Positions 1,751 through 43,827 of a stretch of 64,000 nucleotides of DNA are shown piece after piece (the first letter of the stretch is position 1; each line of letters starts with the position of its first letter). The notes below the pieces were generated by a model that made no database searches, was not told the origin of the DNA, and saw only the letters and a program-made list of their open reading frames with translations. The translations under genes and the position numbers were made by a program. The DNA is from Thermoplasmata archaeon (GTDB taxonomy: Archaea > Thermoplasmatota > E2 > JACPAO01 > JAHFTW01). Where the stretch lies: positions 119,294 through 183,293 of the forward strand of contig JAHFTW010000002.1 of NCBI GenBank assembly GCA_023269235.1, written 5' to 3'.

Positions 1751-2175
1751 CCGCCCAACGCCCCCGCATCCTCCTCGTCGAGGACAACGCCCGCGACGTC
1801 CGCCTCATGCAGATCGTCCTGAGCGAGCTCGACGACTTCCCGCACCTCCTGGAGACGGCGAACGACCTCGTCTCCGGCGTGGCGCGCGTGCGGGCCGGCG
1901 GCGTGGACCTGGTCCTCCTGGACCTCAACCTCCCCGAGTCGCAGGGCGTCGCCACCCTGGCCCGCTTCGTGCGCGAGGCCCCCGCGGTCCCCGTCATCGT
2001 CGTCACCACCCTGGCCGACCGCGAGCTGGCTGCGGAGGCCGTCGCGAAGGGCGCCCAGGATTACCTTGTCAAGGGCCGCATGCACGGTCCCCTTCTGCCC
2101 CATGTGCTGCGCGGCGGCATGGAGCGGCACCGCCTGACCGCCGAGCTGCGCGCGCTGCGCTCCCCGAAGGCGTAG
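1747..2175 (+). CDS. Stand-alone response regulator receiver (CheY-like) domain
   Basis: ILLVEDN ... LVLLDLNLP ... VIVVT ... DYLVKG motifs. ATGA overlap with the kinase stop, so an operonic pair. Confidence 0.85.
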   Translation: MTAQRPRILLVEDNARDVRLMQIVLSELDDFPHLLETANDLVSGVARVRAGGVDLVLLDLNLPESQGVATLARFVREAPAVPVIVVTTLADRELAAEAVAKGAQDYLVKGRMHGPLLPHVLRGGMERHRLTAELRALRSPKA

Positions 2176-2180
2176 CCGGC

Positions 2181-3041
2181 ATGGCGGGACGCGCCCTGGC
2201 CGTGACCGTCGTGCTCGCGGGCCTCGTCCTGGCGGGCTGCGTCTCCGGTCCCGTCCAGGCGCCCCCCAGCAAAGCCACGCTCCTCCCCGCGCCCATCACC
2301 CTCAACATTGGAGCACGGGATTGCCTGAACTTCATCCTGTTCCAGTTCCTCCCCTTCGCTGCCGCCGATGCGTTTCTTCCGCCCGGCTACCACGCCCGGG
2401 ACCCCAAGGATTTCCTGAACTCCCCGGCGGCCACGGGGCAGGCCGCCGCCGTGGTGTTCCTGCTCGACTGCGCAAGCCGCGACGCGGACGGCAAGCCGTG
2501 GGTGAGCGGGTACTCCGGCGTGTACGTCGAGCCGCCCGCCGTCCCCGACACTCCTGATGCGGTGCCCTTGAACTTCTACGAGGTCGAGCACTTCGGGGAG
2601 GAACTGAACGGGACGCTGGCCAGCCTGGGATGGCCGGTCCATGCCTCGAACGTCAGCGTGGCCCGGAACACCGTGAGCCAGGACACCGTCGGGAAATCGG
2701 GCAGCATCACGGACGCCAACGGGTTGCTGTTCCAGTTCTTCGCGACGGCCGCGGCCCCGTATCAGTTGGCCTTGGGCCCGGTCCGGTTGTGGCACGAAAC
2801 CCCCAAGGGAACAGGGTACTTCCAGTACAACGCGACGCTCGATGCCCAGTTCGGACCGGTCGTGTGCATCCTGCCGCAATACGGCACCGTGCTTGGGGCG
2901 CTCATCGGGGAACCGACCCGTCTTCCCAACGGAGGGAACCTGGTGGCTTGCGCCCCAGACCGCGCCCGGCTGGGCGCCACCTTCCCGAACCTGTCGTTCC
3001 TAGGAGAGTTCCGGTTCCTGCCCGGCGTCCACGCGCGGTAG
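2181..3041 (+). CDS. Secreted lipoprotein of unknown function (lipobox LAGC). Paralog of 29436..30275.
   Basis: Signal peptide MAGRALAVTVVLAGLVLAGC. In frame with long ORF 1338..3041, whose upstream part is spurious. Shares collinear motifs with the lipoprotein at 29436. Confidence 0.6.
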   Translation: MAGRALAVTVVLAGLVLAGCVSGPVQAPPSKATLLPAPITLNIGARDCLNFILFQFLPFAAADAFLPPGYHARDPKDFLNSPAATGQAAAVVFLLDCASRDADGKPWVSGYSGVYVEPPAVPDTPDAVPLNFYEVEHFGEELNGTLASLGWPVHASNVSVARNTVSQDTVGKSGSITDANGLLFQFFATAAAPYQLALGPVRLWHETPKGTGYFQYNATLDAQFGPVVCILPQYGTVLGALIGEPTRLPNGGNLVACAPDRARLGATFPNLSFLGEFRFLPGVHAR

Positions 3042-3083
3042 GCGAAGCGACGGCCGCTGCGCTCATCGCAGCAAGACGCATCA

Positions 3084-3120
3084 AAAGGAAGGGGAAGGAA
3101 GGGGAAGGGGAAAAGAAGAC
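3084..3120 (-). terminator. Poly-pyrimidine (C/T-rich) tract immediately 3' of rpl12 (purine GGAA-repeat on + strand). Putative archaeal oligo-T terminator.
   Basis: Plus strand aaaaggaaggggaaggaaggggaaggggaaaagaag. On the minus strand this is cttcttttcccc..., beginning about 15 nt after the L12 stop. Confidence 0.4.
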
Positions 3121-3133
3121 GGGGCGGACGGCG

Positions 3134-3436
3134 TTAGCCGAACAGGGCGCCGAGGCCAGCGGCGGCCTCTTCCTCGGAGACGCCCTTCTCCTCGGGCTTC
3201 TCCTCGGCCTTCGCGGCGGGGGCGGCGGCGCCCGCGGGGGCGGCCATCGCGACCGGCGCGGCGGTGGCGTTCTTGATCGCGGCGCCGATGTCGGCGCCCT
3301 CGAGGGCGGCGACCAGGGCCTTGACACGGCCGGCGTCGGCAGGGATGCCGGCGCCCTTCAGGACCGCGTTGACGTTCGCTTCGTTGATCTCTTTCTTGGC
3401 GCTGTGCAGGAGCAGCGCGCTGTAGACGTATTCCAT
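3134..3436 (-). CDS. rpl12: 50S ribosomal protein L12 (archaeal P1 stalk protein)
   Basis: [22 protein letters not shown] ... Ala-rich hinge ... acidic C-terminal [24 protein letters not shown] start 3 codons upstream (MNTM, 3445) is also possible. Confidence 0.9.
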
Positions 3437-3451
3437 GGTGTTCATTCCTCC

Positions 3452-4498
3452 TTAACCAAACAGCGCGCCTAGTCCGGCGGCCGCTTCCTCTTCGCTGACG
3501 CCCTTCTCCTCGGGCTTCTCCTCGGCTTGCGCCTTAGAGGAGCCGGCCGAGGCGGGCGCCGCCACGGCCACTTGGCTGAGGATCTTCAGGGAGTCGCCCA
3601 GGCGCTGCTTGAGCGCCTCGGACAGGTCGGACTCCTTCTTGCCGATGGAGGCGAGGACCTTCGCGTAGTCGGCCGTGATGGTCTTCTCGACCGCGGCGTC
3701 CACGCTCAGGTTCTGCTCCAAGACCAGGGCGATGGCCTGCTTGTAGGCACGGCCCAGGAGAGCGTCGGCCGTCTCGCTGGTGATGAAGCCAGTCTGGAGC
3801 GACAACTCGTGGGCGGTGCGCACGGCGAGGCCGAGCTGGCCGAAGATGACGGTCTCGTCCACGCCGAGGGCCTCGGGGCCGAAGACGGTCCCGGCCTCGA
3901 AGGCGGCCTTGAGGTCGATCTTCAGCTCGACGGGGCGGATCTCGAGCTTGGCGAGCAGGCCGGCCAGCTCGTTGGAGACGACCTGGCCCGCCTTGACGGG
4001 GGTGGCGTCCTTGGAGATGACGACCTTGCCGGCCTCGATCTTCGCCGGGATGCCGACCTTCTGCAGCTCACCGACGATGGGGCCGGGGCCGAAGGGCGTG
4101 TTGCCCTTGGGGATGAAGATGTCGTTGGGCGCAACCTGGCCGCCCTTGAGGGGGGCCATGGAGGCGCCGGCCTTCAGGCTCTTGAAGAGCTTGAAGGGGT
4201 TCTGCTTCGTGGCGAGGATGACGGACTGGCCGTGCATCTTGGCGGCGAGCGCCTCGATGCCGGGCTTGGCCTTGGCGGCCTCGGCGATGGCAATCTTCAG
4301 CAGGCTGTTCTTGCTGCCGACGACCGACACCTTGCCGCGCAGGCTGACGCGCATCTGCTGCATCTGCGGGGCGGGGATGCCGGAGACCTCGGCGATGGCG
4401 ACGACGGGGTTGTCCACGAGGAGCTTGGTCAGCATGGCGACCTCCTCCTTCTTCCAGGGGGCGACGTGGGCGTGGCCCTCGGTGGTGCCCTTCGTCAT
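3452..4498 (-). CDS. rpl10: 50S ribosomal protein L10 (acidic ribosomal protein P0)
   Basis: 348 aa. P0 N-domain. C-terminus is identical in style to the L12 tail ([23 protein letters not shown]). Confidence 0.9.
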   Translation of the reverse strand: MTKGTTEGHAHVAPWKKEEVAMLTKLLVDNPVVAIAEVSGIPAPQMQQMRVSLRGKVSVVGSKNSLLKIAIAEAAKAKPGIEALAAKMHGQSVILATKQNPFKLFKSLKAGASMAPLKGGQVAPNDIFIPKGNTPFGPGPIVGELQKVGIPAKIEAGKVVISKDATPVKAGQVVSNELAGLLAKLEIRPVELKIDLKAAFEAGTVFGPEALGVDETVIFGQLGLAVRTAHELSLQTGFITSETADALLGRAYKQAIALVLEQNLSVDAAVEKTITADYAKVLASIGKKESDLSEALKQRLGDSLKILSQVAVAAPASAGSSKAQAEEKPEEKGVSEEEAAAGLGALFG

Positions 4499-5134
4499 CT
4501 AGACCACCTTCACGGAGGGGCCCATGGTCGTCTTCACGTACACGGCGCTGACGTTCATGCGGCCGTGCTCGAGCTTGGACTCGACACGCTTGAGGACCGC
4601 GTCGATGTTGTCGGCGAGGTCGGCGGCGGACATGGTCTCGGCGCCCACCATGCAGTGGAACACGAGCTTGTCCTTGGAGCGGAGCTTGACGGTGTTGCGC
4701 AGGTTGTTGACCTGGGGCGTCGGGTCGGCGCCGGGGGGGACGGGGCGGGGCATCTTGCCGCGGGGGCCCAGCACGACACCGAGCGTCTTGCCGATGTTGG
4801 CCATCAGGGGGGCCTCGGCGAGGAAGTAGGTGGTGTTGTTGACGATGCGCTTGAAGTTGCGCTTGTTCTTCGTCAGGGAGTCGAACTCGTCGGGCTGGAT
4901 GACGGTGTCCGCGACCTTCTTGGCCTTGGCGGCGCCTTCACCCTGCGCGAACACGCCGACCTTGGCCGGCTTGCCGCGTCCCTTCGGGAGGATGATGTCC
5001 TCGTCGATGCGGTTCTTCGGGATGCTCAGGTCGACGTTCTTGAGCATGATGGCGAGGTCCACGCTCTGCGTGAACTTGCGCTCGAGGGACTTGGAGGCCT
5101 CGAGGGCCTTCGTGACAGCTTCCAGTGTGGTCAT
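4499..5134 (-). CDS. rpl1: 50S ribosomal protein L1
   Basis: MTTLEAVTKALEASK...FTQSVDLAIMLKNVD...GKTLGVVLGPRGKMP. L1 family. The upstream part of ORF 4499..6295 is spurious. Confidence 0.9.
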   Translation of the reverse strand: MTTLEAVTKALEASKSLERKFTQSVDLAIMLKNVDLSIPKNRIDEDIILPKGRGKPAKVGVFAQGEGAAKAKKVADTVIQPDEFDSLTKNKRNFKRIVNNTTYFLAEAPLMANIGKTLGVVLGPRGKMPRPVPPGADPTPQVNNLRNTVKLRSKDKLVFHCMVGAETMSAADLADNIDAVLKRVESKLEHGRMNVSAVYVKTTMGPSVKVV

Positions 5135-5172
5135 CTCGGCGATAGGAATCACCTGCGGCAGTATGGCGACCC

Positions 5173-5184
5173 GAGACGGGTCTC
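5173..5184 (-). promoter_or_regulatory. Perfect hairpin (gagacgggtctc) in the rpl1 5' leader/promoter region. Possible L1 autoregulatory element or divergent promoter element.
   Basis: 12-nt palindrome between rpl1 (minus) and the epimerase (plus). An A/T-rich ctaaatagg TATA-like box lies about 40 nt upstream of rpl1 on the minus strand. Confidence 0.25.
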
Positions 5185-5299
5185 CTGCCGGCTTTCGTTC
5201 CGACAAGCCCCCCCTATTTAGCCATTTTCGAGGCGAAGCGAGGGTCTCCCGAACAGGGCACACGCAACCGCCAAATGGGAAGGCCCCTGGTGCGCCGGC

Positions 5300-6346
5300 A
5301 TGAAGCAGTTGGAGTCCTACCTGGTCACCGGCGGGGCCGGGTTCCTCGGGCAGGCCCTCGTCAAGCGGCTGGCGGCGCAGGGCAAGCGCATCCGCGTCCT
5401 TGACAACGCACCGCGCCCGCCGGAGCTGGCCGGCATCGAGCTCGACTATGTCCAGGGCGACATCCGCGACCGGGTCGCCGTGGCCAAAGCCGTGGCTGGA
5501 GTGGACTGTGTTCTGCACGGCGCCGCGGCGCTGCCCATCCTGCGCGATGGGAAGTTCATCCACAGCGTGAACGTGGACGGCACCCGGAACCTTCTCGAGG
5601 CCTCCGTCGCCGCGAAGGTGCCCTCCTTCGTCTTCGTCTCGACGACCGCCGTGTACGGCCTGCACAAGGAGCACCCCATCACGGAGAAGAACCGGATGAT
5701 CCCCATCGGCCCCTACGGCGAATCCAAGGTCGCGGCCGAGCTCCTGTGCGCGCAGTTCCGCGACCGCCTCCATGTCGCCGTCGTGCGCCCCAAGACCTTC
5801 CTCGGCCAGGGCCGCCTCGGCGTCTTCGAGATCCTCTTCGACTGGATCCACGACGGCAAACGCATCCCGATGATCGGCAAGGGGCACAACAAGTACCAGC
5901 TCCTCGACGTCGAGGACCTCGTGGACATCCTGCTCCTGTCTGCCAGCCACCCGAAAGGCTCGGACACCTTCAACGCCGCCGCCAACCGGTTCGGCACCCT
6001 GCGCGAGGATCTCGCTCCGCTGTTTGCCGCCGCCGGCCACAAGCCGCGTTTCCTCACGACGCCGCGCAAGACCACCATCAGCGCACTCTGGGTGCTTGAC
6101 AAGCTCCGCCTGAGCCCCCTCACGCAGTGGCACTACGGCACGATGTCCTCCGACTCCTACGTCGAGACCGACAAGGCGCGCGAGCTCCTCGGCTGGAGCG
6201 CCAAGCGCAGCAACCAGGACACCTTGCTTGCCGCCTACACCTGGTACCACGCCCACCACGACGAGGTCAAGAAAGTGGGCGGCGGCACGACGCACACGGT
6301 GCCGTGGAACCAGAAGGCGCTCGGCTTCTTCAAGCGCTTCGCGTAG
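5300..6346 (+). CDS. NAD-dependent epimerase/dehydratase (extended SDR, GalE/UDP-sugar 4-epimerase family)
   Basis: N-terminal TGGAGFLGQALVKRL Rossmann motif. YxxxK region. 348 aa. Confidence 0.85.
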   Translation: MKQLESYLVTGGAGFLGQALVKRLAAQGKRIRVLDNAPRPPELAGIELDYVQGDIRDRVAVAKAVAGVDCVLHGAAALPILRDGKFIHSVNVDGTRNLLEASVAAKVPSFVFVSTTAVYGLHKEHPITEKNRMIPIGPYGESKVAAELLCAQFRDRLHVAVVRPKTFLGQGRLGVFEILFDWIHDGKRIPMIGKGHNKYQLLDVEDLVDILLLSASHPKGSDTFNAAANRFGTLREDLAPLFAAAGHKPRFLTTPRKTTISALWVLDKLRLSPLTQWHYGTMSSDSYVETDKARELLGWSAKRSNQDTLLAAYTWYHAHHDEVKKVGGGTTHTVPWNQKALGFFKRFA

Positions 6347-6370
6347 CGCGCGTAGAAGGTCGAGGGCGGA

Positions 6371-6434
6371 GCGCCTCCGGCTTTGCGCAGCAAGGCCGGA
6401 GGCAAAAGGCTCTCAGCTTCTTCAAGCGCTTCGC
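6371..6434. repeat. Convergent intergenic hairpin plus a 20-nt direct duplication of the epimerase 3' end
   Basis: IR gcgcctccggc...gccggaggc (6371-6403). gcttcttcaagcgcttcgc at 6324-6342 is repeated at 6415-6434, recreating a ...FFKRFA* reading frame. Confidence 0.6.
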
Positions 6435-6442
6435 CTGAGCGG

Positions 6443-9400
6443 TTACGGCTGGCATGCGGACGGCGCATCGGGCGCCGCGAACGCTGGCTCGAGGGCCTTG
6501 AGCGCGACGGCCATGCACTGGCCGTTGATGGTGTCGTGGCGGCCGCCGCCGGCGACGCTGAGCTCGGTGGCGACCCACGGCTTGACGGAGGTCGCCGCGT
6601 GCGCGCCGCACGACTGGCCGACGTGGAACGTTGCCCCGTTGCGCTCCAGCCAGAGGCCCCCGGCGCGGGCGGAGAGCCGGTCGCCGGGCACGAGCGTGTA
6701 CGGGCCCGGCACGGCGTCGAGGCCGGCAAGACAGGTGTCCCCCAAGGCCGCGTTGAGGGGCAGCGCGAGGTCGGGGCCGAAGGTGAGGACGGGGACCTTG
6801 GCGGCCGACCAGCTCGTGAGCTGGGCCGAGACGGCGGGGCCCGCCCGGTAGGGGCCGTAGCCGCCCTCGATGAGGACGAGGTCGGGGGCGCCGGAGACCG
6901 CGGGGCCGAAGACGTCGGCCGCGGCGACGCGGGTCTGGGGCAGGGCGCGGGGCAGGGCCGCCAAGGCGTCGATGCCCCAGAAGTGGCTCTCGCCCAATTC
7001 CGGCACGCTTGGATCCGTCATGGACGAGCGCTCATGGAGCAGGAAGAGGACGTTCTTCGCAGGGGCCGGGGCTGCCTGGAGCGCCTGCCGCTCGGCCAGG
7101 GTCTGCTCCAAGAAGCGCGCGCCGTACTCTTGGCTGGGCTCGATGCTGGAGCCTTCGAAGAACTCGTTGAAGGTCGCGATGACGGGGAAGGTCGGCGGGT
7201 GCGCGATGGTGGAGTCCCAGCTCCGCGAGTAGAACGACGCGCCGCCCGGACCGTCGGGGAACGCGGGGATGACAAACCCGTTCGGGCGGTTGACGGTGTC
7301 GTCGTACGAGGGCGCCACGCCAAACGAGCTCAGGCGGCCCGTCGCGTCGGCGAAGGCGGTGAGGCGGTGGTTGCGGTCCTCCCACAACGCGAAGGTGTCG
7401 TTGAAGGGCGCCTTCGGCTGGTTGCCCCACGTGAAGGACGGGCTGTAGATGAACGACCCGTCGAAGGCGGAGAGGCTCACGAGCGACTTGACGGTGCCCG
7501 CCTGGAAGTCGGCGCGCTCGTTGAGGGCGTCGCCGTTGACCATGAAGAGCGGCGTCCCGACGGCGGCCTCGAGGCGGGCGCGCAGGTCCTCCCAGAACGC
7601 GACGTGCTGCACCAAGTGGGCTGCGCGCCACAGGCCGTTGGCGCCAGGGTCGTTGAAGGACTTGTACGTCGTCGGGTAGTACTGCAGGACTGAGGGGACG
7701 GTGGCCTGGAGGCTGGAGTCGTTGAAGGCGGCGCGCAGCGTCTCGAGGGAGTGGAGGGAGAGGAGGGTGCGGGCCAGGCTCGCCTTGTCCTCAGGGTGGA
7801 AGCTGACCCCGCCGACATACGAGTCGTAGAAGAAGACCACCGGGCGGCCGCCCATGTGGAGCGCGGAGGGTTGGAGCAGCTGCGCCTTGAGGTCAACGAC
7901 GAACGCCGAGATGGCGTCCCGCGTGCCGTTGTCGAGGCGGTAGAAGGAGGCGGGGACCAGCTGCCCGAGCTCGTTCACGGGGTGGTGCTCCGCCTGGTCG
8001 TACACCTGGTTGAGCTCAATGAGGGGCGCGACGCGCAGGCCCGCCTTCGTCGCCTCATCCTGGAACGTGCGGTAGCGTTCGGCCTCGCCGCGGTGGTAAC
8101 TCACGACCGCGGTGTCAATGCCGGCCCCAATCATGGCGGCGACCTGGTCGCGGGCCACGCCCCGCGTGTTCGTGTAGTAGCCGATGGTGGGGACCTGGCT
8201 GACCACCTCCCAGTTGCCGTAGCGCACCGCGGGATCATGGGCCGGGTTCTGCCACCACAAGTAGGTGAAGGCGCCCACCAGCGGCTGAGCGGTGGCGGGG
8301 ATGAAGGCGGCGGGCGGGGCGGCCGCGCCGCCGAGTGCCGGCAGGAAGCCGACGCCGATGAGGAGGAGGCCGAGAACGCCCGTCGGGAGCAGGTGGCGGA
8401 CGCCCACGGGGGAGCGCGAACGCTGGCCGCTGAGGATGCGCAGCGCGAGCCACGCCATCGCGAACAGGGTGATGGACACCAGGGCCACAAGGATGGTTTG
8501 GAGCCACCACCAGAAGTCCGGCGAAAGGCTGCGCAACCGTTCGGCCGCAACGTCCACGGGCACGCCGCCCAAGACGACGTTGGCGACGTCTGGGGGCAGG
8601 AAGGTGAGGAAATGGAAGCCGCCGATGGCGATGACGAGCGCGAACAGCGTCGGCGTCCAGCGCGTCAGGAAATGGCCGAGGCGGTCGAGGACGTGGAGTT
8701 GGTCCAGGACGAGGATGGGCGCGACGAGGAGCACAAGGTACTGTTCGTTGACGACGCGGTTCCACACGAGGATGGCGATGCCGGCCATCAGGGTCAGCAT
8801 CAGGCTGGTGCCCTTGCCGCGCAGCCGCGTTGAGAGGTAGCCCACCGCGACGAGGGAGGCCACCATCAGGAGCGGGCTGAGGAGCTTGACGACGCCGTCG
8901 GAGAGGACCTCGCGCGGCACGAGCTGCCAGAGCGTCAGGCCCTGCACGCCGCGCGCCAGGTGCATTCCGACGACCTGCTGCCAGAAGCCGCCGGGGTCGG
9001 AGAGGAAGAAGGGGGCGCTCACGGCGGCGACGATGCCGGCGCCCGCGGCGCCGAAGCGGAACGCCGACTCCCAGCCGTGGCGCCGCACCAGGTACGGCAG
9101 CATCGGCAGGACGAGGAGGGCGGGGAAGGGCTTGACCAGAAAGGCGAGGCCGACGAGGACGCCAGCCTTGCCGGGCTTGCCGTTGCCGTAGGCGAGCAGG
9201 CCGCCGAGGTAGAGGGCCATGAGCGCGACGTCGGTCATGCCCCACGCGGCGGCCACGAGCAGGAGGAACGGGTTCCAGAGGAAGCGCCGTTCGACCTTGC
9301 GGGCCTCGTCTTCGTCGGAGCCGAAGCGGCGCGCCCAAGCCCCAGCGACCCAGGCGAGCGCCACAAGGGAGGCGATCATGGGGAGCTTCCACAGCACGCG

Positions 9401-9706
9401 CTCGGCGAAGGGGGGAAGATGGAACAGGAGGGCGGGCCAGTAGGTCATCGCCATGCCAAGCAGCATGAGGGGCGGGTAGGCCCACCACTGCGTCGTGGTG
9501 TCGGTGGGCCCGAGGAAAGCGTAGAACGGCTGCTGCGCCGCGATGCCGTACGGGGAATGGCCCTGCAGGAACTGCGTGACCACGGTGCGGAACACGTAGC
9601 CGTCCCAGTCGTGGTCGAGGAGGGCCGCGAGCAGCAGGGCGACCAGGAAGGGCATGCGGGCGTCCCGCAGGCGCACCCTCCAGGCCTCCGGCAGCCGCTC
9701 CAGCAT
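6443..9706 (-). CDS. Giant integral-membrane GT-C-type glycosyltransferase. N-terminal domain has about 10-12 TM helices (DUF2029/GT87/PMT-like). Large C-terminal extracytoplasmic domain.
   Basis: In-frame start MLERLPEAWRV at 9706 (alternative MPFLVALL 51 nt downstream). Dense hydrophobic helices through about aa 560, then about 520 aa soluble domain rich in W/Y/N. The rest of ORF 6443..10684 is a spurious extension. Confidence 0.65.
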   Translation of the reverse strand: MLERLPEAWRVRLRDARMPFLVALLLAALLDHDWDGYVFRTVVTQFLQGHSPYGIAAQQPFYAFLGPTDTTTQWWAYPPLMLLGMAMTYWPALLFHLPPFAERVLWKLPMIASLVALAWVAGAWARRFGSDEDEARKVERRFLWNPFLLLVAAAWGMTDVALMALYLGGLLAYGNGKPGKAGVLVGLAFLVKPFPALLVLPMLPYLVRRHGWESAFRFGAAGAGIVAAVSAPFFLSDPGGFWQQVVGMHLARGVQGLTLWQLVPREVLSDGVVKLLSPLLMVASLVAVGYLSTRLRGKGTSLMLTLMAGIAILVWNRVVNEQYLVLLVAPILVLDQLHVLDRLGHFLTRWTPTLFALVIAIGGFHFLTFLPPDVANVVLGGVPVDVAAERLRSLSPDFWWWLQTILVALVSITLFAMAWLALRILSGQRSRSPVGVRHLLPTGVLGLLLIGVGFLPALGGAAAPPAAFIPATAQPLVGAFTYLWWQNPAHDPAVRYGNWEVVSQVPTIGYYTNTRGVARDQVAAMIGAGIDTAVVSYHRGEAERYRTFQDEATKAGLRVAPLIELNQVYDQAEHHPVNELGQLVPASFYRLDNGTRDAISAFVVDLKAQLLQPSALHMGGRPVVFFYDSYVGGVSFHPEDKASLARTLLSLHSLETLRAAFNDSSLQATVPSVLQYYPTTYKSFNDPGANGLWRAAHLVQHVAFWEDLRARLEAAVGTPLFMVNGDALNERADFQAGTVKSLVSLSAFDGSFIYSPSFTWGNQPKAPFNDTFALWEDRNHRLTAFADATGRLSSFGVAPSYDDTVNRPNGFVIPAFPDGPGGASFYSRSWDSTIAHPPTFPVIATFNEFFEGSSIEPSQEYGARFLEQTLAERQALQAAPAPAKNVLFLLHERSSMTDPSVPELGESHFWGIDALAALPRALPQTRVAAADVFGPAVSGAPDLVLIEGGYGPYRAGPAVSAQLTSWSAAKVPVLTFGPDLALPLNAALGDTCLAGLDAVPGPYTLVPGDRLSARAGGLWLERNGATFHVGQSCGAHAATSVKPWVATELSVAGGGRHDTINGQCMAVALKALEPAFAAPDAPSACQP

Positions 9707-9792
9707 CTTGGCCACTTGACCCGACAGCGTGGTATAAGGTTCGTGGGCGCGGCCCTGAACTGATGGAGAGAGACCCCGGGGCGGGGGCGCGC

Positions 9793-10677
9793 TTAGAGGC
9801 GCTGCAGCCAGTCGAGGGCGTGCTGGGCAGCCCCGCCCTGGACCGCCACGACGAGGGCGACCCAGACGGCGCCGTTGAGCAGGGTGGCGCGGTCGCGGAA
9901 GAGCATCTGCGCCTCGTCGCGGCCGTCGCGGCGGTGGACAAGGTGGTTGTAGCGCAGCACGCCGTAGAACGCGAAGGGGAGCGTGAACATCATGGCCGGG
10001 TGGGGGCCGAAGAATGTGTAGAGGCTGTACGCGGCGAGGATGAGGGCCGTGGAGACCTGGAGCGTCTGCTCGACGAAGGCGACCGAGTACTCGGCGAGCA
10101 CGGCGCGATGCTCGGAGCCGGCGCCGACGAGCAGTTCGTGGCGGCGCTTGGCGAGGCCGAGGTGGAAGGCGAACAGGAAGGTGCAGACGATGAGCCACGG
10201 CGACGGCGGGACGGGGAGGACCGTGGTGCCGGCAAGCGCGCGCAGGACGAAGCCGAGCGCGATGGCGAGGAGGTCCCACAGGAAGACCTGCTTGAGGCCG
10301 AGGTTGTAGAGGACCTGGAGGGCGACGTAGGCGAGGCCGAGCGTGAACGTGACCGTGTTGGCGCGCCACAGCAGGGCGAGGCCGCAGGCGAGCAGGACGA
10401 CTGCGAGCAGGAGGGCGGCCGGGACGGAGACGGCGCCGGAGGCGACGGGGCGCGTGCGCTTGGTGGGATGCAGACGGTCCTTGGCGGCGTCGCGGGCGTC
10501 GTTGGCGCAGTACGCCGCAGAGCTGAGCATGATGAACGCGACGACGGCGAGGGCGGCGCGCGGCCAGAGAGTGGTGTTCCCGAGGTTGCCGCTGAACAGC
10601 AGCGGCACGAGCACGATGCCGTTCTTGTACCACTGGCGCGGGCGCAGCAGGGCAAGCAACGGAGGCAGGGTCACCAA
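9793..10677 (-). CDS. UbiA-family prenyltransferase, decaprenyl-phosphate 5-phosphoribosyltransferase (DPPR synthase, Rv3806c-like)
   Basis: RPRQWYKNGIVLVPLLFSG. NDARDAAKD matches the NDxxDxxxD motif. HPTKRTRPVASG. Nine TM helices. Confidence 0.8.
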   Translation of the reverse strand: MVTLPPLLALLRPRQWYKNGIVLVPLLFSGNLGNTTLWPRAALAVVAFIMLSSAAYCANDARDAAKDRLHPTKRTRPVASGAVSVPAALLLAVVLLACGLALLWRANTVTFTLGLAYVALQVLYNLGLKQVFLWDLLAIALGFVLRALAGTTVLPVPPSPWLIVCTFLFAFHLGLAKRRHELLVGAGSEHRAVLAEYSVAFVEQTLQVSTALILAAYSLYTFFGPHPAMMFTLPFAFYGVLRYNHLVHRRDGRDEAQMLFRDRATLLNGAVWVALVVAVQGGAAQHALDWLQRL

Positions 10678-10730
10678 CGCGCACAGACCGACGGCTTCCG
10701 GTTCAAGGTTGCGCCTGACCCCGGAGCCGG

Positions 10731-11285
10731 CTAGACTTCCCAGACGTCGGACTTGCGCTTGGCGCCGACGAGGTCGATGGCGCCCGGGGCGGACTCGGCG
10801 GCGTGCGGGTTGCGCCCTCCCCCGAGGCGGCGGGCGGGCTCGGCCTCGACGACCTTGCTAGCCCCCATGTTGTCCACGAGCGCCATCTCGCCCATGAACG
10901 TGAAGCGGATGGACTCCTTGGCAAGGCGGCCAAGGAACAGTTCGCACGCGGAGACGAACGCCTGCGCGTCGAGCTTACGCTGGCCGGGCGCGGCATCGGC
11001 GGGGTAACCGCCCATGTAGATGGTGAGGAAGGCGCGGCCGAGGCGGCGCACGAAGATGAGCGTCGCCGTGCCGCGCCCCAACCGGAGGTGCGTCCCCGAG
11101 CTGTGCAGGACGAAGCCGGTCTCGCCGCCGTCCTGGACCTCCCAGCCGTCGAGCCCCATCTCGCGTGCCTGGAGCGGGCCCCACATCGCCATCGCGGTGT
11201 GCTTGGGCACGGGCGCCTCCCATTTGCTGACGAAGACCCCCGCGTCCAGCACGTCCATGCCAAGGAATGCAAGGCGCGGGGTCAT
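10731..11285 (-). CDS. Hypothetical protein (184 aa), operonic with the DPPR-synthase-like and HAD genes
   Basis: High GC3 ORF in the same orientation, with short gaps to its neighbours. No recognisable motifs. Confidence 0.4.
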   Translation of the reverse strand: MTPRLAFLGMDVLDAGVFVSKWEAPVPKHTAMAMWGPLQAREMGLDGWEVQDGGETGFVLHSSGTHLRLGRGTATLIFVRRLGRAFLTIYMGGYPADAAPGQRKLDAQAFVSACELFLGRLAKESIRFTFMGEMALVDNMGASKVVEAEPARRLGGGRNPHAAESAPGAIDLVGAKRKSDVWEV

Positions 11286-11313
11286 GGCCCTTCTGCTTCG
11301 CGCCGGTGGGAAA

Positions 11314-11895
11314 TCAGGAGGCGGCGATGCGGCGAAGGATGAGGTCCACGGCCGCGGGGAGCCCGTCCACGACGGGGACGTCCCAGCCGCGCTTCGCCAT
11401 CGCGGCCTCGAGCTGGGGCCGGGAATGCGAGGTGGAGAGAAGGATCGCCTTGCAGCCGTAGGCGTGGGCCGCCTCGGCGTCCTTGACGTTGTCGCCCACC
11501 ATGACGGCCCGCTTCGGGTCGGCGCCGAGCGCGCGGCCGCCGTCCTCGAGCATGCCGGGGCGTGGCTTGTGGCGGCGCCCGAAGGGGACGGTGGCGGCCT
11601 CGATGCGGTCCAGGCGGCCGCCCGCGGCGCGCAGCTCCTCCATCATCCAGGCGTGGAGCTCCGCGAGCTTCGTGCGCCGGAGAAGGCCCGTGGCGACGAA
11701 GGGTTGGTTCGTGGCGAGGCACACATTGATGCCGGGTCGGTTGAGGCGCGCGACGGCCTCCTTCGCGCCGGGAAGCCACTCCCATTGGGCGATGCGGGAA
11801 AGGAACAGCACGGGCCTCGTCTTCGCGAGGACGCCGTCGCGGTCAAGGAAGACCGTGAACGACCGGGTGGGGGCGGTGGCCGTCTTGCCGCTCAT
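11314..11895 (-). CDS. HAD-superfamily phosphatase, GmhB (D,D-heptose 1,7-bisphosphate phosphatase)/histidinol-phosphatase-like
   Basis: FLDRDGVL motif I. ...ATNQ... and GDNVKD motifs. 4-nt overlap with the folE2 stop. Confidence 0.8.
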   Translation of the reverse strand: MSGKTATAPTRSFTVFLDRDGVLAKTRPVLFLSRIAQWEWLPGAKEAVARLNRPGINVCLATNQPFVATGLLRRTKLAELHAWMMEELRAAGGRLDRIEAATVPFGRRHKPRPGMLEDGGRALGADPKRAVMVGDNVKDAEAAHAYGCKAILLSTSHSRPQLEAAMAKRGWDVPVVDGLPAAVDLILRRIAAS

Positions 11896-12818
11896 TCCGC
11901 GGCCCCGAGGGTCGTGTGGCGCTCGGCGTAGGCGTTGTGCTTGTGGATGGACTCCTGCGCCTCGCTGGAGACGAAGACGCTGGCCCCGGCCAGTTTCTTG
12001 TTGCGCTTGGCGAGCAGGTGGATGGCCTCGCGCACGACGTCCTCCACGAAGCGCGGGTTGTCGTGGGCCTGAATGACGAGGGCGCCCTCGTCGCCGCGCT
12101 TGAGAAGCTCGAACGTTGGGGCCGACAGGGCCTCCTCGGCGACCCCGACGAGGTCCGCCGCCTCGACGTCGGCATCGCCCGGCAGGTCGAGCAGGAGGGT
12201 GACGACGTTGCGCTGGTTGTGCGTGATGAACGGGAGGTTCGCCGCCGGCTTGCGGCCCTTCTCCGTCATCTGGTGGCGCGCGGTCTCCATGGCGCACGGG
12301 CAGGCCGACATGCCGACGACTTGGACGCCGACGCGGCGCGTCGTCGTGGGCTTGGCCTTCCCCGTCCCCCGCAGCGCCTCGGCCTCGGTGAGGAGGCGGT
12401 ACACCTCGATCGTGGCCTTGCCGCCGGGGTTGGTGCGGGTGAGGAAGTAGTCGGCCTCCGCCTTGACGTGGGCGTGGCTCGCGTAGTCGTGCCGCTCCAG
12501 AAGCCGGAGGGCGAGGCGGCGGCACAGGTTCTCCAGGCTGGGGGCCTCGGTCGCGACCTCCTCGTCCAGGATGTCCGCGAGCGCCTCGAGGTTGCGGCTC
12601 ATGTGGGTGCCCTTCTGCGTCTTGGGCAGATCCACGAACAGGTCGAAGGTGGCCACGACGCCGGTCGGTTTTTGGCCCGGGCGGTGGACGGTGACGGGTT
12701 TCTTGACGCCGCGCACGCCGACGCGGGTCAGCTTGTAGGGGTGCGGGGAAGCCGCCGCCTGGACGTCGGGCGAAGCCGTTGGCTTCGATCGCGGTGCGGC
12801 CTTCGTTGCCCGGTGCAC
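11892..12818 (-). CDS. folE2: GTP cyclohydrolase FolE2/MptA family (type IB / archaeal Fe(II)-dependent GTP cyclohydrolase)
   Basis: YKLTRVGVRGVKKPV ... GMSACPCAMETAR. FolE2/MptA hallmark Cys-containing motif. Confidence 0.8.
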   Translation of the reverse strand: MHRATKAAPRSKPTASPDVQAAASPHPYKLTRVGVRGVKKPVTVHRPGQKPTGVVATFDLFVDLPKTQKGTHMSRNLEALADILDEEVATEAPSLENLCRRLALRLLERHDYASHAHVKAEADYFLTRTNPGGKATIEVYRLLTEAEALRGTGKAKPTTTRRVGVQVVGMSACPCAMETARHQMTEKGRKPAANLPFITHNQRNVVTLLLDLPGDADVEAADLVGVAEEALSAPTFELLKRGDEGALVIQAHDNPRFVEDVVREAIHLLAKRNKKLAGASVFVSSEAQESIHKHNAYAERHTTLGAAE

Positions 12819-13186: not shown

Positions 13187-13711
13187 GTGCTGGAACTGAA
13201 GATCGACGGCTGGCGCAAGGGGCTACGGTTCAGCAGCGCCCACATCACGCCGGAGCACAAGAAGTGCGGCCGCCTGCACGGGCACACCTACGCCATCCAC
13301 TTGCGCATGCAGGGAAAGCAGGACGAGTGGGGCATCGTGCTCGACTTCGGCGTCATCACGGACACCCTCAAGGCCATCGGCGACGAGATCGACCACCTCG
13401 TCCTGGTGCCGACCGAGAGCAACCACTACTCGAACCTCAAGGTGACGAAGAAGGACGTGAAGTTCCGCGTGACCGACCCCTACACGGGCGAGCCGAAGGA
13501 GTTCAGCTTCCCCCGCCAGGACTGCGCCCTGCTCCCGCTCCCCTCGACCACGGCGGAGGACTTGGCGAAGTACGTGTACCGCGAGTTCATGAAACGCACC
13601 AAGTTCACGACGGACACCGCTTTCGTCGAGGTCGGCGTGGACGAGGGCTACGGCAAGGGCGCGTGGTACTCCGACGCGAAGCCTGTGAAGGGCAAATCCA
13701 AGGTGAAGTAG
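13187..13711 (+). CDS. queD: 6-carboxy-5,6,7,8-tetrahydropterin synthase (QueD/PTPS family)
   Basis: GTG start. CGRLHGHTY (CxxxHGH) zinc motif. Confidence 0.85.
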
Positions 13712-14397
13712 TGGCGGGCGCACCCGCCAAACCCCGGGCCGTCGTCCTCCTCAGCGGCGGCCTCGACTCCACGACGGCGGCGGCGTGGGCCCAGAAACGC
13801 GGCTACGAGGTCGTGGCGCTCTCGTTCGACTACGGCCAGCGGCACAAGAAGGAACTCACGCAGGCCAAGGCTGTCGCGAAGGCGTTGGGCATCCGGGACC
13901 ACCGCGTCCTCAAGGTCCCCGTCGGCGACCTGGGCGGCTCCGCCCTCACCGACAGGCGCATCGCGGTCCCCAAGGCCGGCAAACGCATCGGCGCCTCCAT
14001 CCCGTCCACCTACGTCCCCGCCCGCAACACGGTCTTCCTCTCCCTTGCCCTTGGCCTCGCCGAGGTCACTGGCGCGTCGGCCATCGTCATCGGCGCCAAC
14101 GCGCTCGACTACTCCGGCTACCCCGACTGCCGCCCCGAATACCTGCGCGCCTTCGAACGCATGGCCAACCTCGCCACCAAGGCCGGCATCGAGGGCCGAA
14201 AGGTGAAGGTTAAGGCTCCCCTGCTCCGACTCTCCAAGCGGGACATCGTGCAGCTCGCTCTTCGTCTCAAGGCGCCCATCCACCTGTCGTGGAGTTGCTA
14301 CCGCGGTGGCGCCCGTGCGTGCGGGACCTGCGAGTCCTGCGTCCTGCGCGCCAAGGGCTTCGCCGCGGCGGGCGTAACGGACCCGGCGGGCGCCTGA
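13711..14397 (+). CDS. queC: 7-cyano-7-deazaguanine (preQ0) synthase QueC
   Basis: GTG start overlapping the queD stop. PP-loop [11 protein letters not shown]-terminal zinc cysteines [15 protein letters not shown]. Confidence 0.9.
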
Positions 14398-15234
14398 ATG
14401 CCCATCGACCTCGTCCAGGCTACCAGCATCGTGGTCACCCTGCTCCTGCTGGAGGCTGTCCTCTCCTTCGACAACGCCGCCATCCTCGCGGTCATGTCGC
14501 GCAAGCTCCCGCCCGGGGCAGGGCGCAAGCGGGCGCTCAACTACGGCCTCCTCATCGCCTACGTCCTTCGCATCCTTGCGATCCTTGCCGCGGTCGTGCT
14601 CGCCAGCACGCCATGGTTCCTCACCGTCGGCGGCGCCTACCTCGTCTTCCTGTTCATGAAGCACTTCCTCGGCATGGCGGGCGGGAAACCGCATGCCCAC
14701 GCGACCGCGCCGGACCAGTCGGCGACGAAGGGTTTCCTGGGCCTTTCGCCGCTCCAGTCCGTCGTCCTCCAGATCGGCCTCGTGGACCTCGCCTTCGCGC
14801 TCGACCAGGTCGTCGCCGCCGTCGCGTTCACGAAGAACGTCGAGCCTGTCACGTTCCTGGGCGGCCTTGTGACCTACCAGCAGGCGCTCATCCTGGTCGC
14901 GGCCACCGCGGGACTGGTGAGCCTGCGCGTCCTGGCGCCCTTCATCAGCCGCCTCATGGACTGGCTCCCCATCCTGGAGCATATGGCCTTCGTCGCGGTC
15001 GGCTTCGTCGGCGCGCTTCTCGTGCTGGAGCATCCGCTCGTGGTGCCGCCGCTGCACGTCATCACGGATCCGCTTGAGCCCGTCAAGATCCCCGTCACGC
15101 TGGGGCTCTTCGCCGTCCCCATCTTCATCAAGCTCGTCTTCAAGGTCCCGCGCGGCCGCAGCCACGTCCATGCCGCCTCGGAGAAGGCCATTGACGCCGC
15201 GCAGCCTGGGCCTCACCTCCCCAAGAAGCCTTGA
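14398..15234 (+). CDS. TerC/DUF475-family integral membrane protein
   Basis: LSFDNAAILAV motif. Multiple TM helices. Embedded between queC and queE. Confidence 0.7.
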   Translation: MPIDLVQATSIVVTLLLLEAVLSFDNAAILAVMSRKLPPGAGRKRALNYGLLIAYVLRILAILAAVVLASTPWFLTVGGAYLVFLFMKHFLGMAGGKPHAHATAPDQSATKGFLGLSPLQSVVLQIGLVDLAFALDQVVAAVAFTKNVEPVTFLGGLVTYQQALILVAATAGLVSLRVLAPFISRLMDWLPILEHMAFVAVGFVGALLVLEHPLVVPPLHVITDPLEPVKIPVTLGLFAVPIFIKLVFKVPRGRSHVHAASEKAIDAAQPGPHLPKKP

Positions 15235-15256
15235 ACCGGAACGGACTCGACCCAGC

Positions 15257-15910
15257 GTGCAGGTCACCGAGACGTTCCTCTCCATCCAGGGCGAGGGGCG
15301 GCGCATGGGGCTCCCGACGAGCTTCGTGCGCACCACCGGCTGCCACCTGCGCTGCGTCTGGTGCGACGCGGCCTACGCCTTCCATGGCGGCAAGCCGCAG
15401 ACCGTGGCCCAGCTCGTCGAATGGTGCCGAAGCCAGCCGACGAAGGAGGTCTGTTTCACGGGCGGCGAGCCGCTCTTGCAGAAAGACGCGTGGGCGTTCG
15501 TCGAGGCCCTGCTCGCCGACGGGTTCTCGGTGCTCATCGAGACCTCCGGCAATCTCTCGTTCGCGCACGCCAACACGCTCCCGCCAGAACACCGCGCCCG
15601 CCTGTGCGTGAGCATGGACGTGAAGTGCCCGGGCTCCAAGATGGCGGACAAGAACGACCTCACGCTGCTGGCCGACTTGCGCGCGCCGGACCAGCTCAAA
15701 TTCGTCATCGTGGACCGCGCCGACTACGACTTCTCCGCGCGCGTCGTGCGCGAGCACGGCCCGTTCCCGTGCCCCGTGTACTTCAACCCGGTCGGCGGCA
15801 CGGACGCGAAGGCCATCACGGAATGGCTCCTCGCCGAGACGAAGCCGCTGCCCGTCCACGCGGGGCTCCAAATGCACAAGCTGCTCTGGGGCGACGTGCC
15901 CGGACGCTAG
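15257..15910 (+). CDS. queE: 7-carboxy-7-deazaguanine synthase QueE (radical SAM)
   Basis: GTG start. ETFLSIQGEGRRMG ... TGCHLRCVWCD (CxxxCxxC-type radical SAM motif) ... FTGGEPLL. Confidence 0.85.
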   Translation: MQVTETFLSIQGEGRRMGLPTSFVRTTGCHLRCVWCDAAYAFHGGKPQTVAQLVEWCRSQPTKEVCFTGGEPLLQKDAWAFVEALLADGFSVLIETSGNLSFAHANTLPPEHRARLCVSMDVKCPGSKMADKNDLTLLADLRAPDQLKFVIVDRADYDFSARVVREHGPFPCPVYFNPVGGTDAKAITEWLLAETKPLPVHAGLQMHKLLWGDVPGR

Positions 15911-43218: not shown

Positions 43219-43827
43219 ATGGAGCAGCGCATTCCCCTGCTGCGGCGCCTCGGACTGCTCAGCGTGGGCCTGACCATCCTCCTCATGGTGCTGGGTGCCT
43301 GGGTGAAGGCCAACGGGGCCGGACTCTCCTGCCCGGACTGGCCTGCCTGCTACGGCAAGCTCCTCCCCCCGTTCCCGAGCTACGAGAACGGCGGAACCTG
43401 GCACGGCCAGCCCGTCCTCTACTCACAGGCCCAGGAGCTCTACGAGTGGGGCCACCGCGCCGTCGTGAGCCTACTGTTTGTCCCGCTCGCGGCCTTCGCC
43501 CTCGTCGCCGCGTTCGGCAAGACGCTGCGCCCTGCTCTGCGCTGGCTCCCGCTCGCGGCGCTCGGCCTCTACTTCTTCCAGGCCTTCCTTGGAGCCGTCA
43601 CCGTCCTGACGGGCAACCCGCCGTGGGCGACGACGTTCCACCTGGCCACCGCGGTCGCGTTCCTGACGACGCAGCTCGTCGCGACCTGCGCCGCCTACTT
43701 CGCGCCCACCGCCCCGACCCGCCTGGAGCCCACGACGCCGACGGCGGCCGCCCCCGGCCTGGTGCAGCCGCGCGCCTTCACCGGCTACACGTGGGCCGAC
43801 TCTCGCCCGCCGGAGAAGAATGGCTAG
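43219..43827 (+). CDS. ctaA: Heme A synthase (CtaA/COX15, short type)
   Basis: CPDWPAC motif. Conserved His in TM helices (EWGHR, TFHLA). Confidence 0.8.
   Translation: MEQRIPLLRRLGLLSVGLTILLMVLGAWVKANGAGLSCPDWPACYGKLLPPFPSYENGGTWHGQPVLYSQAQELYEWGHRAVVSLLFVPLAAFALVAAFGKTLRPALRWLPLAALGLYFFQAFLGAVTVLTGNPPWATTFHLATAVAFLTTQLVATCAAYFAPTAPTRLEPTTPTAAAPGLVQPRAFTGYTWADSRPPEKNG

Follow-up and report, generated by a model that had tools for sequence, protein, structure and literature searches.

Does an archaeon make a lipid-linked pentose from phosphoribosyl pyrophosphate (PRPP) and use it to build a surface glycan? The question is raised by a gene locus in a 64,000-nucleotide stretch of DNA, here called the window, from a Thermoplasmata archaeon (GenBank assembly GCA_023269235.1, contig JAHFTW010000002.1, positions 119,294 to 183,293). 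An earlier note had read positions 5300–11895 of the window as an analogue of the mycobacterial decaprenyl-phospho-arabinose (DPA) pathway. Three genes of this region, encoding a UbiA-superfamily membrane protein, a large C-type glycosyltransferase (GT-C) and a short-chain dehydrogenase/reductase (SDR), are the conserved core across Thermoplasmatota. We give an even chance to the interpretation that this trio is the archaeal version of a PRPP-dependent route by which pentofuranoses, carried on a lipid, reach surface glycans. The window is ~ 70% GC along its whole length, and its archaeal character is seen in an L1/L10/L12 ribosomal-protein operon at 3134–5200. The closest named relatives of the UbiA and GT-C proteins come from Thermoplasmatota metagenome-assembled genomes (MAGs). 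The trio is laid out as follows.

5300–6346, plus strand: SDR of the GalE-type extended class, NAD-dependent epimerase/dehydratase family, 348 residues.
6443–9706, minus strand: GT-C glycosyltransferase, whole gene, 1087 residues from the ATG.
8327–9706, minus strand: membrane domain of the GT-C, about residues 1–460, with the motif HDWDG (residues 32–36) just after the first transmembrane segment (TM1).
6443–8326, minus strand: soluble region of the GT-C, about residues 461–1087, a GH99-like TIM barrel with C-terminal alpha/beta and beta-sandwich domains.
9793–10674, minus strand: UbiA-superfamily candidate polyprenyl-phosphate 5-phosphoribosyltransferase (PPPRS/DPPRS-like), 293 residues from the called GTG.

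In part of the analysis the GT-C residues were counted from position 9718, which gives numbers higher by four than the ATG-based numbering.

The UbiA protein belongs to the Pfam UbiA family, and public annotations label its homologues '4-hydroxybenzoate polyprenyltransferase', a label that the present assignment corrects. The four top-scoring NCBIfam models are three decaprenyl-phosphate phosphoribosyltransferase models and PRK08238, with 210, 175, 154 and 118 bits. Conventional prenyltransferase models reach 16–54 bits (4-hydroxybenzoate octaprenyltransferase, the UbiA enzyme proper, and heme O synthase ~ 40 bits, digeranylgeranylglyceryl phosphate (DGGGP) synthase ~ 30 bits), leaving the decaprenyl-phosphate phosphoribosyltransferase (DPPR synthase) assignment with a lead of more than 150 bits. 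A phmmer search of the PDB yielded two entries of the mycobacterial enzyme Rv3806c as the sole matches; the alignment with PDB entry 8j8j is full-length (residues 8–278, E value 6.5e-28), with about 28% amino acid sequence identity to Rv3806c. The AlphaFold2 model of the protein has a pLDDT of 93, and its first Foldseek match is again 8j8j (E value 1e-11, TM score 0.80), five orders of magnitude ahead of the runners-up AfUbiA (1.4e-6) and DGGGP synthase (2.8e-5).

The ligand-binding residues agree with this assignment. In Rv3806c, N73 and D77 coordinate Mg, N73 and Q135 contact the ribose, K28, Y70 and Y157 bind the 5-phosphate, and R22, K87, R90, Y138 and K143 bind the pyrophosphate; according to the structure paper, the sites for phosphoribose have no counterpart in ordinary UbiA enzymes (PMC10994848). 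R22, K28, Y70, N73, D77, K87, R90, Q135, Y138 and K143 are all identical in the window protein (10/10), Y157 is replaced by phenylalanine as in some mycobacteria, and K208 lacks conservation. In an alignment of 120 UbiA homologues with Rv3806c, Q135 is kept in 112 homologues and each of the other nine identical residues in 118–120. The motifs quoted in the earlier note are also in place, NDARDAAKD at residues 58–66 and HPTKRTRPVASG at residues 69–80. The model ranking, the full-length match, the ligand residues and the fold place the protein in the DPPR-synthase (Rv3806c) clade, as the earlier note had claimed, and away from DGGGP synthase and the menaquinone and heme prenyltransferases with which, on that note's own terms, it could have grouped. 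On sequence and predicted structure the protein is very probably a candidate Rv3806c-type polyprenyl-phosphate 5-phosphoribosyltransferase with PRPP as the donor, and the same evidence supports phosphoribosyl transfer as its putative step.

The orthologous UbiA loci of Thermoplasmatota that were compared (numbered as in the analysis) encode UbiA proteins with 75% (L001), 59% (L002 and L009) and 55% (L003 and L005) identity to that of the window. The UbiA, GT-C and SDR genes recur next to one another in Thermoplasmatota loci with differing outer flanks, and since this adjacency persists at 55–75% UbiA identity, the linkage is not due to chance. The order UbiA, optional flippase-like gene, GT-C, SDR is kept across rearranged loci. 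The UbiA–GT-C synteny that the earlier note had proposed to look for in other archaea thus recurs across the phylum. By hand comparison, at least 25 of the 34 GT-C orthologues on contigs of at least 10 kb are co-located on the contig with a UbiA orthologue, and many SDR orthologues likewise lie on what appear to be those contigs.

In the relatives, the trio is embedded in a larger cluster that comprises Acyl_transf_3 genes, PMT_2/TMEM260-like GT-Cs (family A), two or three unannotated polytopic proteins of 470–579 residues (family B), UbiA, an LPG_synthase_TM protein whose gene separates those for UbiA and the GT-C, the ~ 1100-residue GT-C, the SDR and sometimes a methyltransferase. Each such cluster encodes five to seven GT-C-like proteins, and this setting of the trio suggests a whole extracytoplasmic glycan assembly line. 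Family B has no Pfam match; hhalign relates it with 94–95% probability to both family A and the GT87-like domain, and it may be a new GT-C lineage. Its members occur in one to four copies per locus (L001 6201–7940; L002 3320–6484; L003 1353–2765 and 7386–8957; L005 4393–8901; L113 636–8951). At the edge of the L003 cluster (1–1170) a 1029-residue protein with a GtrA_DPMS_TM domain is encoded; GtrA-like proteins are among the proposed flippases of lipid-linked sugars.

The window holds a reduced version of this arrangement. A tblastn search with the proteins of the relatives' cluster matched the UbiA, GT-C and SDR genes alone in the 64 kb, with no match for the acyltransferases, the PMT_2-like GT-Cs, family B, the methyltransferase or LPG_synthase_TM. 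The L001 blocks 517–7940 and 8863–9909 are absent from the corresponding window region, 9706–11285; the block of ~ 7.5 kb comprises two Acyl_transf_3 genes, two PMT_2/TMEM260-like GT-C genes and one family-B gene. The tblastn result, together with a copy of the window's 184-residue hypothetical protein at the edge of the L001 cluster, makes the window locus look like the L001 arrangement minus the ~ 7.5-kb block and LPG_synthase_TM.

Beyond the Thermoplasmatota, an alignment-based scan of one genome per species yielded at least 592 relatives of the UbiA protein, mostly from bacteria of many phyla. The archaea among the relatives listed are Thermoplasmatota, a true haloarchaeon (L010, with bat and brp as neighbours) and a Methanosarcinales MAG. 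A rough neighbour-joining tree of UbiA sequences, for which branch support was not evaluated, keeps the Thermoplasmatota sequences together with the haloarchaeal one next to them. Gene neighbourhoods were counted over 86 UbiA loci. The ~ 1100-residue GT-C occurs in Thermoplasmatota only, and LPG_synthase_TM adjoins UbiA in 17 loci (16 without L001), archaeal as well as bacterial. An Rv3806c-like UbiA gene directly followed by LPG_synthase_TM is a recurrent pair, found in the haloarchaeon, the Methanosarcinales MAG and many Rubrobacter and other Actinomycetota, often with no recognisable GT-C nearby (L010 10001–12655; L015; L013, L024, L027, L035, L036, L074). An apparent fusion of the two in L036 was rejected, a stop codon separating what are adjacent genes, and long N-terminal 'extensions' of some UbiA proteins were discarded as merely open frames in high-GC DNA. 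Fusions of a HAD phosphatase to UbiA, of the PRK08238 or ORF15 type, are found in none of the 86 loci.

The GT-C exceeds the Pfam cut-off for GT87 (PF09594; 48.2 bits, cut-off 25) and shows a weak match to GH99 (PF16317). Across the 41 members of its family, GT87 is matched by 38 and GH99 by 35, minor matches comprise WbsX, PIG-U, ALG6/8, ALG3 and PIG-M, and Pfam arabinosyltransferase families have zero matches. The family profile identifies GH99 endo-alpha-mannosidases (E value 7e-15) and GPI mannosyltransferase 1 (E value 1.4e-9) in the PDB. The AlphaFold2 model (pLDDT 93, pTM 0.91) adopts the GT-C_A fold, with a helical membrane domain that extends to about residue 460 and is followed by a soluble region of ~ 620 residues, presumably extracytoplasmic. 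Emb, AftA and AftD are missing from the top 60 structural matches of this model, and a Foldseek search with the ectodomain is in agreement. An invariant Asp-rich motif, HDWDG, follows TM1 directly, at the place that corresponds to the catalytic Asp of PimE and other GT-C_A enzymes. In the outer domain, the sequence NEFFEG aligns with NEWHEG of BxGH99, so that E333 and E336, the two catalytic glutamates, are both present; conservation across the family is at least 90%, at a low overall identity to GH99 enzymes of 14–22%. A possible role of the GH99-like domain is to bind or trim an acceptor of the alpha-mannoside type; hydrolysis being a prediction, it may also be a mere acceptor binder.

The earlier note had claimed a GT-C architecture with a large outer domain, which is what the model contains, with the outer location of the ~ 620-residue region a matter of inference. 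Its further claim that the protein resembles the Emb and Aft arabinofuranosyltransferases does not hold, as the relatives are GT87, PIG-M, ALG6, ALG3 and PimE and the outer domain is GH99-like. UniProt places the arabinofuranosyltransferase AftC in GT87; confirmation of this in the literature was looked for and not found. Unlike the known GT87 and GT-C_A transferases (PimE, PIG-M/GPI-MT-I, ALG3, ALG6), the window protein carries a fused multi-domain ectodomain of ~ 620 residues that is GH99-like and GH42-like, and its gene is coupled to a phosphoribosyltransferase gene instead of a dolichyl-phosphate-mannose (Dol-P-Man) synthase gene. Unlike the GH99 endo-alpha-1,2-mannosidases and mannanases (BtGH99, BxGH99 and human MANEA), its GH99-like domain is tethered to a GT-C membrane enzyme.

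The SDR matches the Pfam Epimerase family (E value 3e-39), reaches no NCBIfam equivalog, and contains the motifs TGGAGFLG (residues 10–17) and YGESK (residues 139–143) as well as S114. It has zero predicted transmembrane segments and is soluble. The earlier note's adjacent, divergent sugar epimerase is correct as to a GalE-type extended SDR beside the GT-C, but the two genes are convergent, tail to tail, with a 96-nt gap. The SDR is the most conserved member of the trio, its full-length matches sharing 73–84% identity, above UbiA and GT-C. In L001, L003, L005 and L007 the orthologue adjoins the GT-C or the flippase-like gene, in L009 it is ~ 5 kb away, and bacterial orthologues (42–45% identity) lie near UbiA in three loci (L019, L037 and L048). 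The SDR is linked to the glycan cluster as a whole, and the UbiA product may go to the trio's GT-C or to another GT-C of the cluster.

All reading frames named in the earlier note (SDR, GT-C, UbiA, a 184-residue hypothetical protein and a HAD phosphatase) lie where it placed them. It counted five co-oriented minus-strand genes ending in UbiA; there are six (DUF1294, mptA, HAD, the 184-residue protein, UbiA and GT-C), the GT-C gene being the last. Those outside the trio are as follows.

10731–11285, minus strand: soluble hypothetical protein, 184 residues, module membership uncertain.
11314–11895, minus strand: HAD-IIIA phosphatase, GmhB- or histidinol-phosphatase-like, probably outside the module and paired with mptA.
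11892–12818, minus strand: mptA, encoding GTP cyclohydrolase MptA, upstream neighbour of the HAD gene.
Next minus-strand gene after mptA: DUF1294 gene.

The HAD protein contains the quoted motif FLDRDGV and scores 104 bits against the NCBIfam GmhB-type 7-phosphatase (cut-off 178) and 71.7 bits against HAD-IIIA (cut-off 44.6). MptA scores 301 bits against its NCBIfam model (cut-off 220), and the start of the HAD gene overlaps the mptA stop by 4 nt. A metagenome scan for HAD relatives yielded nine loci with orthologues (L087–L094 and L106; 44–67% identity). In eight of the nine, mptA lies directly upstream on the same strand, and the ninth has no upstream sequence. Conversely, a HAD orthologue occurs in none of the 85 other UbiA loci, the window's own contig being the sole case. 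The HAD phosphatase was on these grounds rejected as the default 5-phosphatase of the pathway, and its inclusion in the module by the earlier note is not upheld. It fits best with MptA and the pterin context; that it lies near UbiA in the window appears to be a by-product of local rearrangement. As a separate observation, it is a candidate for an unassigned dephosphorylation that follows MptA in the pterin synthesis of archaea. The 184-residue protein has no Pfam or NCBIfam match; one copy, 81% identical, stands at the outer edge of the L001 glycan cluster (L001 2–454), and another, 58% identical, 1.6 kb downstream of mptA–HAD in L090 (4624–5088).

The remaining genes of the window are housekeeping genes. 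Divergent from DUF1294–mptA–HAD, at 13187–15910 on the plus strand, are queD, queC, a TerC-family gene and a radical-SAM (QueE-like) gene, so that preQ0/archaeosine genes adjoin the GTP cyclohydrolase gene. A second UbiA-family gene at 43820–44707 (plus strand), beside COX15/CtaA, encodes heme O synthase and provides an internal contrast to the phosphoribosyltransferase-like UbiA.

How the trio might work can be sketched by comparison with what is known from bacteria. There, a three-component system shown biochemically adds alpha-ribofuranose (Ribf) or xylofuranose (Xylf) to O antigens (Kelly et al., PNAS 2024, PMC11127046). It combines an Rv3806c-like PPPRS, to which a HAD phosphoribose phosphatase is fused, with a flippase and a GT-C (GT136) that bears a carbohydrate-binding module (CBM). 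The Xylf systems have an extra cytoplasmic GalE-like SDR (ORF13), and the arabinofuranose (Araf) systems have DprE1/E2 homologues instead (PMC11127046). In the archaeal pathway proposed here, UbiA would move 5-phosphoribose from PRPP to a polyprenyl phosphate, presumably dolichyl phosphate, at the cytoplasmic face of the membrane. The 5-phosphate would then be removed by some phosphatase, for which the neighbouring HAD protein, being syntenic with mptA, is a weak candidate. By analogy with ORF13 of Citrobacter youngae O2, the cytoplasmic NAD-dependent SDR may turn the lipid-P-ribofuranose into an epimer, for example xylo- or arabinofuranose, by way of a transient keto intermediate. The lipid-linked pentose would be flipped, the relatives' LPG_synthase_TM protein being the candidate flippase, and a GT-C would put the pentose onto a surface glycan outside the membrane, the adjacent 1087-residue enzyme being the candidate on account of its conserved adjacency. 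The lipid acceptor, the removal of the 5-phosphate, the epimerisation and its position in the sequence of steps, the flipping, the GT-C user and the nature of the acceptor are thus proposals, and a PRPP-derived lipid-linked pentose donor in this archaeon is plausible.

Of the systems described, the bacterial three-component pentofuranose system (ORF15, ORF14 and ORF12, with or without ORF13, of C. youngae O1/O2) comes closest. The archaeal locus has in common with it an Rv3806c-like PPPRS from the UbiA superfamily that contains the NDxxDxxxD loop, a GT-C to which a further, carbohydrate-related domain is attached on the extracytoplasmic side, a GalE-type SDR as an optional cytoplasmic component (likened by its TGxxGxxG and YxxxK motifs, not by the sequence of ORF13) and the scheme of a PRPP-derived lipid-linked pentofuranose that would be made inside and used outside the membrane. 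It differs in its archaeal host, with presumably dolichyl phosphate as carrier, and in a UbiA protein without the fused HAD 'PRP' domain, the window HAD being GmhB-like and mptA-linked. The relatives' candidate flippase is an LPG_synthase_TM protein, whose gene is absent from the window, and is not of the MATE type. In place of a GT136 enzyme with an Ig-like CBM there is a GT87-, PIG-M- and ALG6-like GT-C with a GH99-like domain, and the five to seven GT-C-like genes of the relatives suggest polymer assembly instead of the addition of a single side chain. With the mycobacterial DPA pathway the locus shares the type of the first enzyme, with conserved ligands for PRPP, Mg and the 5-phosphate, and the supply of lipid-linked donors to multiple GT-C enzymes; the relatives' cluster, with its many GT-Cs and acyltransferases, recalls mycobacterial lipoarabinomannan and arabinogalactan assembly. 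Unlike that pathway, which employs the PAP2 phosphatase Rv3807c, the FAD oxidase DprE1 and the classical SDR DprE2, it has none of these enzymes, neither a DprE1-type FAD oxidase (FAD_binding_4/ALO) nor a classical-SDR DprE2 nor a PAP2 protein being found in the window or in the relatives' loci; the sole SDR is the extended, GalE-type enzyme. The GT-C is not of the GT53, GT85, GT89 or AftD types, and there is no sign of arabinose.

These differences bear on the literal form of the earlier proposal, a true analogue of the mycobacterial DPA pathway in which the HAD protein dephosphorylates, the SDR 2'-epimerises to arabinose and an Emb/Aft-like GT-C builds an arabinan. Such a pathway would draw on the UbiA assignment, which holds, on the SDR conserved beside the GT-C, on the activity of GmhB-like HAD proteins on sugar bisphosphates, compounds that resemble lipid-P-ribose-5-P in their chemistry, and on the HAD-type phosphoribose phosphatase domains fused to bacterial PPPRS (PMC11127046). 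Set against this are the synteny of the HAD gene with mptA in eight of nine loci and its absence from every other UbiA locus, the lack of both a DprE1-like oxidase and a classical-SDR DprE2 where bacterial Araf systems carry homologues of both and a single GalE-like SDR goes with Xylf, and a GT-C that is not Emb/Aft-like. An arabinan pathway of the mycobacterial kind is consequently improbable, and the label of a DPA/arabinan analogue does not fit the locus. A shade less improbable is a phosphoribosyl-lipid that is not a glycosyl donor at all but a membrane-lipid head group or metabolite precursor, its UbiA gene adjoining the GT-C through a shared envelope function. This idea accommodates the many UbiA–LPG_synthase_TM pairs (haloarchaeon L010, Rubrobacter and others) that have no recognisable GT-C nearby, and LPG_synthase_TM is known from the lipid-modifying enzyme MprF (Pfam family description). 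It is at odds with the tight linkage of UbiA and GT-C across Thermoplasmatota, and the characterised members of the UbiA clade, from mycobacteria, Pseudomonas pilin and Citrobacter O-antigen systems, all feed a GT-C (PMC11127046). That the UbiA protein is an ordinary prenyltransferase (a DGGGP, heme O or quinone enzyme) in a cluster unrelated to pentoses is very hard to credit. Pfam membership and the public label of its homologues speak for it, whereas those families score 16–54 bits against 210, the residues specific to PRPP binding are kept, the best structural match is Rv3806c, and heme O synthase is a separate gene beside CtaA.

A more serious contender, if still an unlikely one, keeps the UbiA assignment and reassigns the GT-C: the 1087-residue enzyme would use Dol-P-Man (or the glucose equivalent), and its GH99-like domain would build or reshape a lipoglycan or glycoprotein glycan of the alpha-mannan type. 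Families A and B, encoded in the relatives' clusters and absent from the window, would consume the UbiA product. GT87, PIG-M, ALG3 and ALG6 are its nearest relatives in sequence and fold, the GH99 catalytic glutamates are conserved, and five to seven GT-C-like proteins are available in the relatives' clusters. A 30%-identical paralogue, P0175, repeats the GT87 and GH99 architecture; its cluster (L112 9001–13598) includes GT2 genes and a GT-C of the PIG-V-like (Mannosyl_trans2) type and has no UbiA nearby, and Thermoplasmatota therefore use the fusion in two or more different glycan clusters. Among the Thermoplasmatales in culture a canonical S-layer is mostly missing, and their tetraether lipoglycan contains glucose and mannose (PMC12448462), which would fit a mannoside acceptor. 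On the other side, the 1087-residue protein is the sole GT-C beside UbiA in the window, and the order of UbiA, optional flippase-like gene, GT-C and SDR is constant across rearranged loci. If AftC does belong to GT87, moreover, that family is not confined to mannose donors.

Several of these observations also weigh against the pentofuranose interpretation of the trio, together with others that belong here. The closest relatives of the GT-C, GT87/PimE, PIG-M, ALG3 and ALG6, use polyprenyl- or dolichyl-phosphate hexoses, and with these relatives and its mannosidase-like outer domain the protein may be a mannosyltransferase instead of a pentosyltransferase; the UbiA-free cluster of P0175 points the same way. 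The earlier note had named a canonical AglB, PMT or ArnT with a dolichol-hexose donor as the contrary outcome, and the hexose-using relatives come near to it, even if the protein fits none of these three canonical types. The best NCBIfam match of the UbiA protein, NF008977 (decaprenyl-phosphate phosphoribosyltransferase), stays at 210.4 bits below its equivalog cut-off of 234, and NF008978, at 175.3 bits, is also under its cut-off of 207. The 64-kb window contains no flippase gene of the MATE, SMR, GtrA or LPG_synthase_TM type, and the locus has no dedicated 5-phosphatase gene linked to UbiA. Two bacterial SDR orthologues (~ 50% identity) adjoin CopC/CopD genes and not UbiA, so the SDR family is not tied exclusively to UbiA, and an archaeal orthologue (58% identity), to which no UbiA lies closer than 9 kb, is surrounded by four family-B genes, a GT2 gene and the methyltransferase gene of the cluster. 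No pentofuranose-containing glycan is reported for Thermoplasmatota in the literature searched, and the functional steps are all inferred. The interpretation of the trio as a PRPP-dependent pentofuranose system keeps its even chance with these points counted. We hold more tentatively, at clearly less than even, the extended proposal that Thermoplasmatota make a dolichyl-phosphate-pentofuranose from PRPP and use it through a multi-GT-C assembly line on a mannose-based surface lipoglycan or glycoprotein glycan; that the pentofuranose in it would be Ribf, or Xylf or Araf made by the SDR, is held with the same reserve.

As far as is known, archaeal surface glycans are built from nucleotide sugars and from dolichyl-phosphate or dolichyl-pyrophosphate hexoses. 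The literature searched contains no description of a PRPP-derived lipid-linked pentofuranose donor in Archaea. The earlier note's statement that no such module had been described in archaea therefore stands as far as an archaeal counterpart is concerned, but it overlooked the three-component systems, which are reported from bacteria and one phage only (PMC11127046). If the extended proposal is true, Archaea would gain their first lipid-linked pentofuranose donor and their first glycan pathway that depends on PRPP, and the three-component pentofuranose principle would reach a second domain of life. The clusters of the relatives would be a functional parallel of mycobacterial lipoarabinomannan assembly, with other GT-C families, another candidate flippase family and a single-enzyme epimerase. 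They would also bring new GT-C lineages, namely the fusion of GT87-like and GH99-like domains and family B, along with a new candidate flippase family, and would give genetics a concrete point of entry to the Thermoplasmatota envelope, which is poorly understood.

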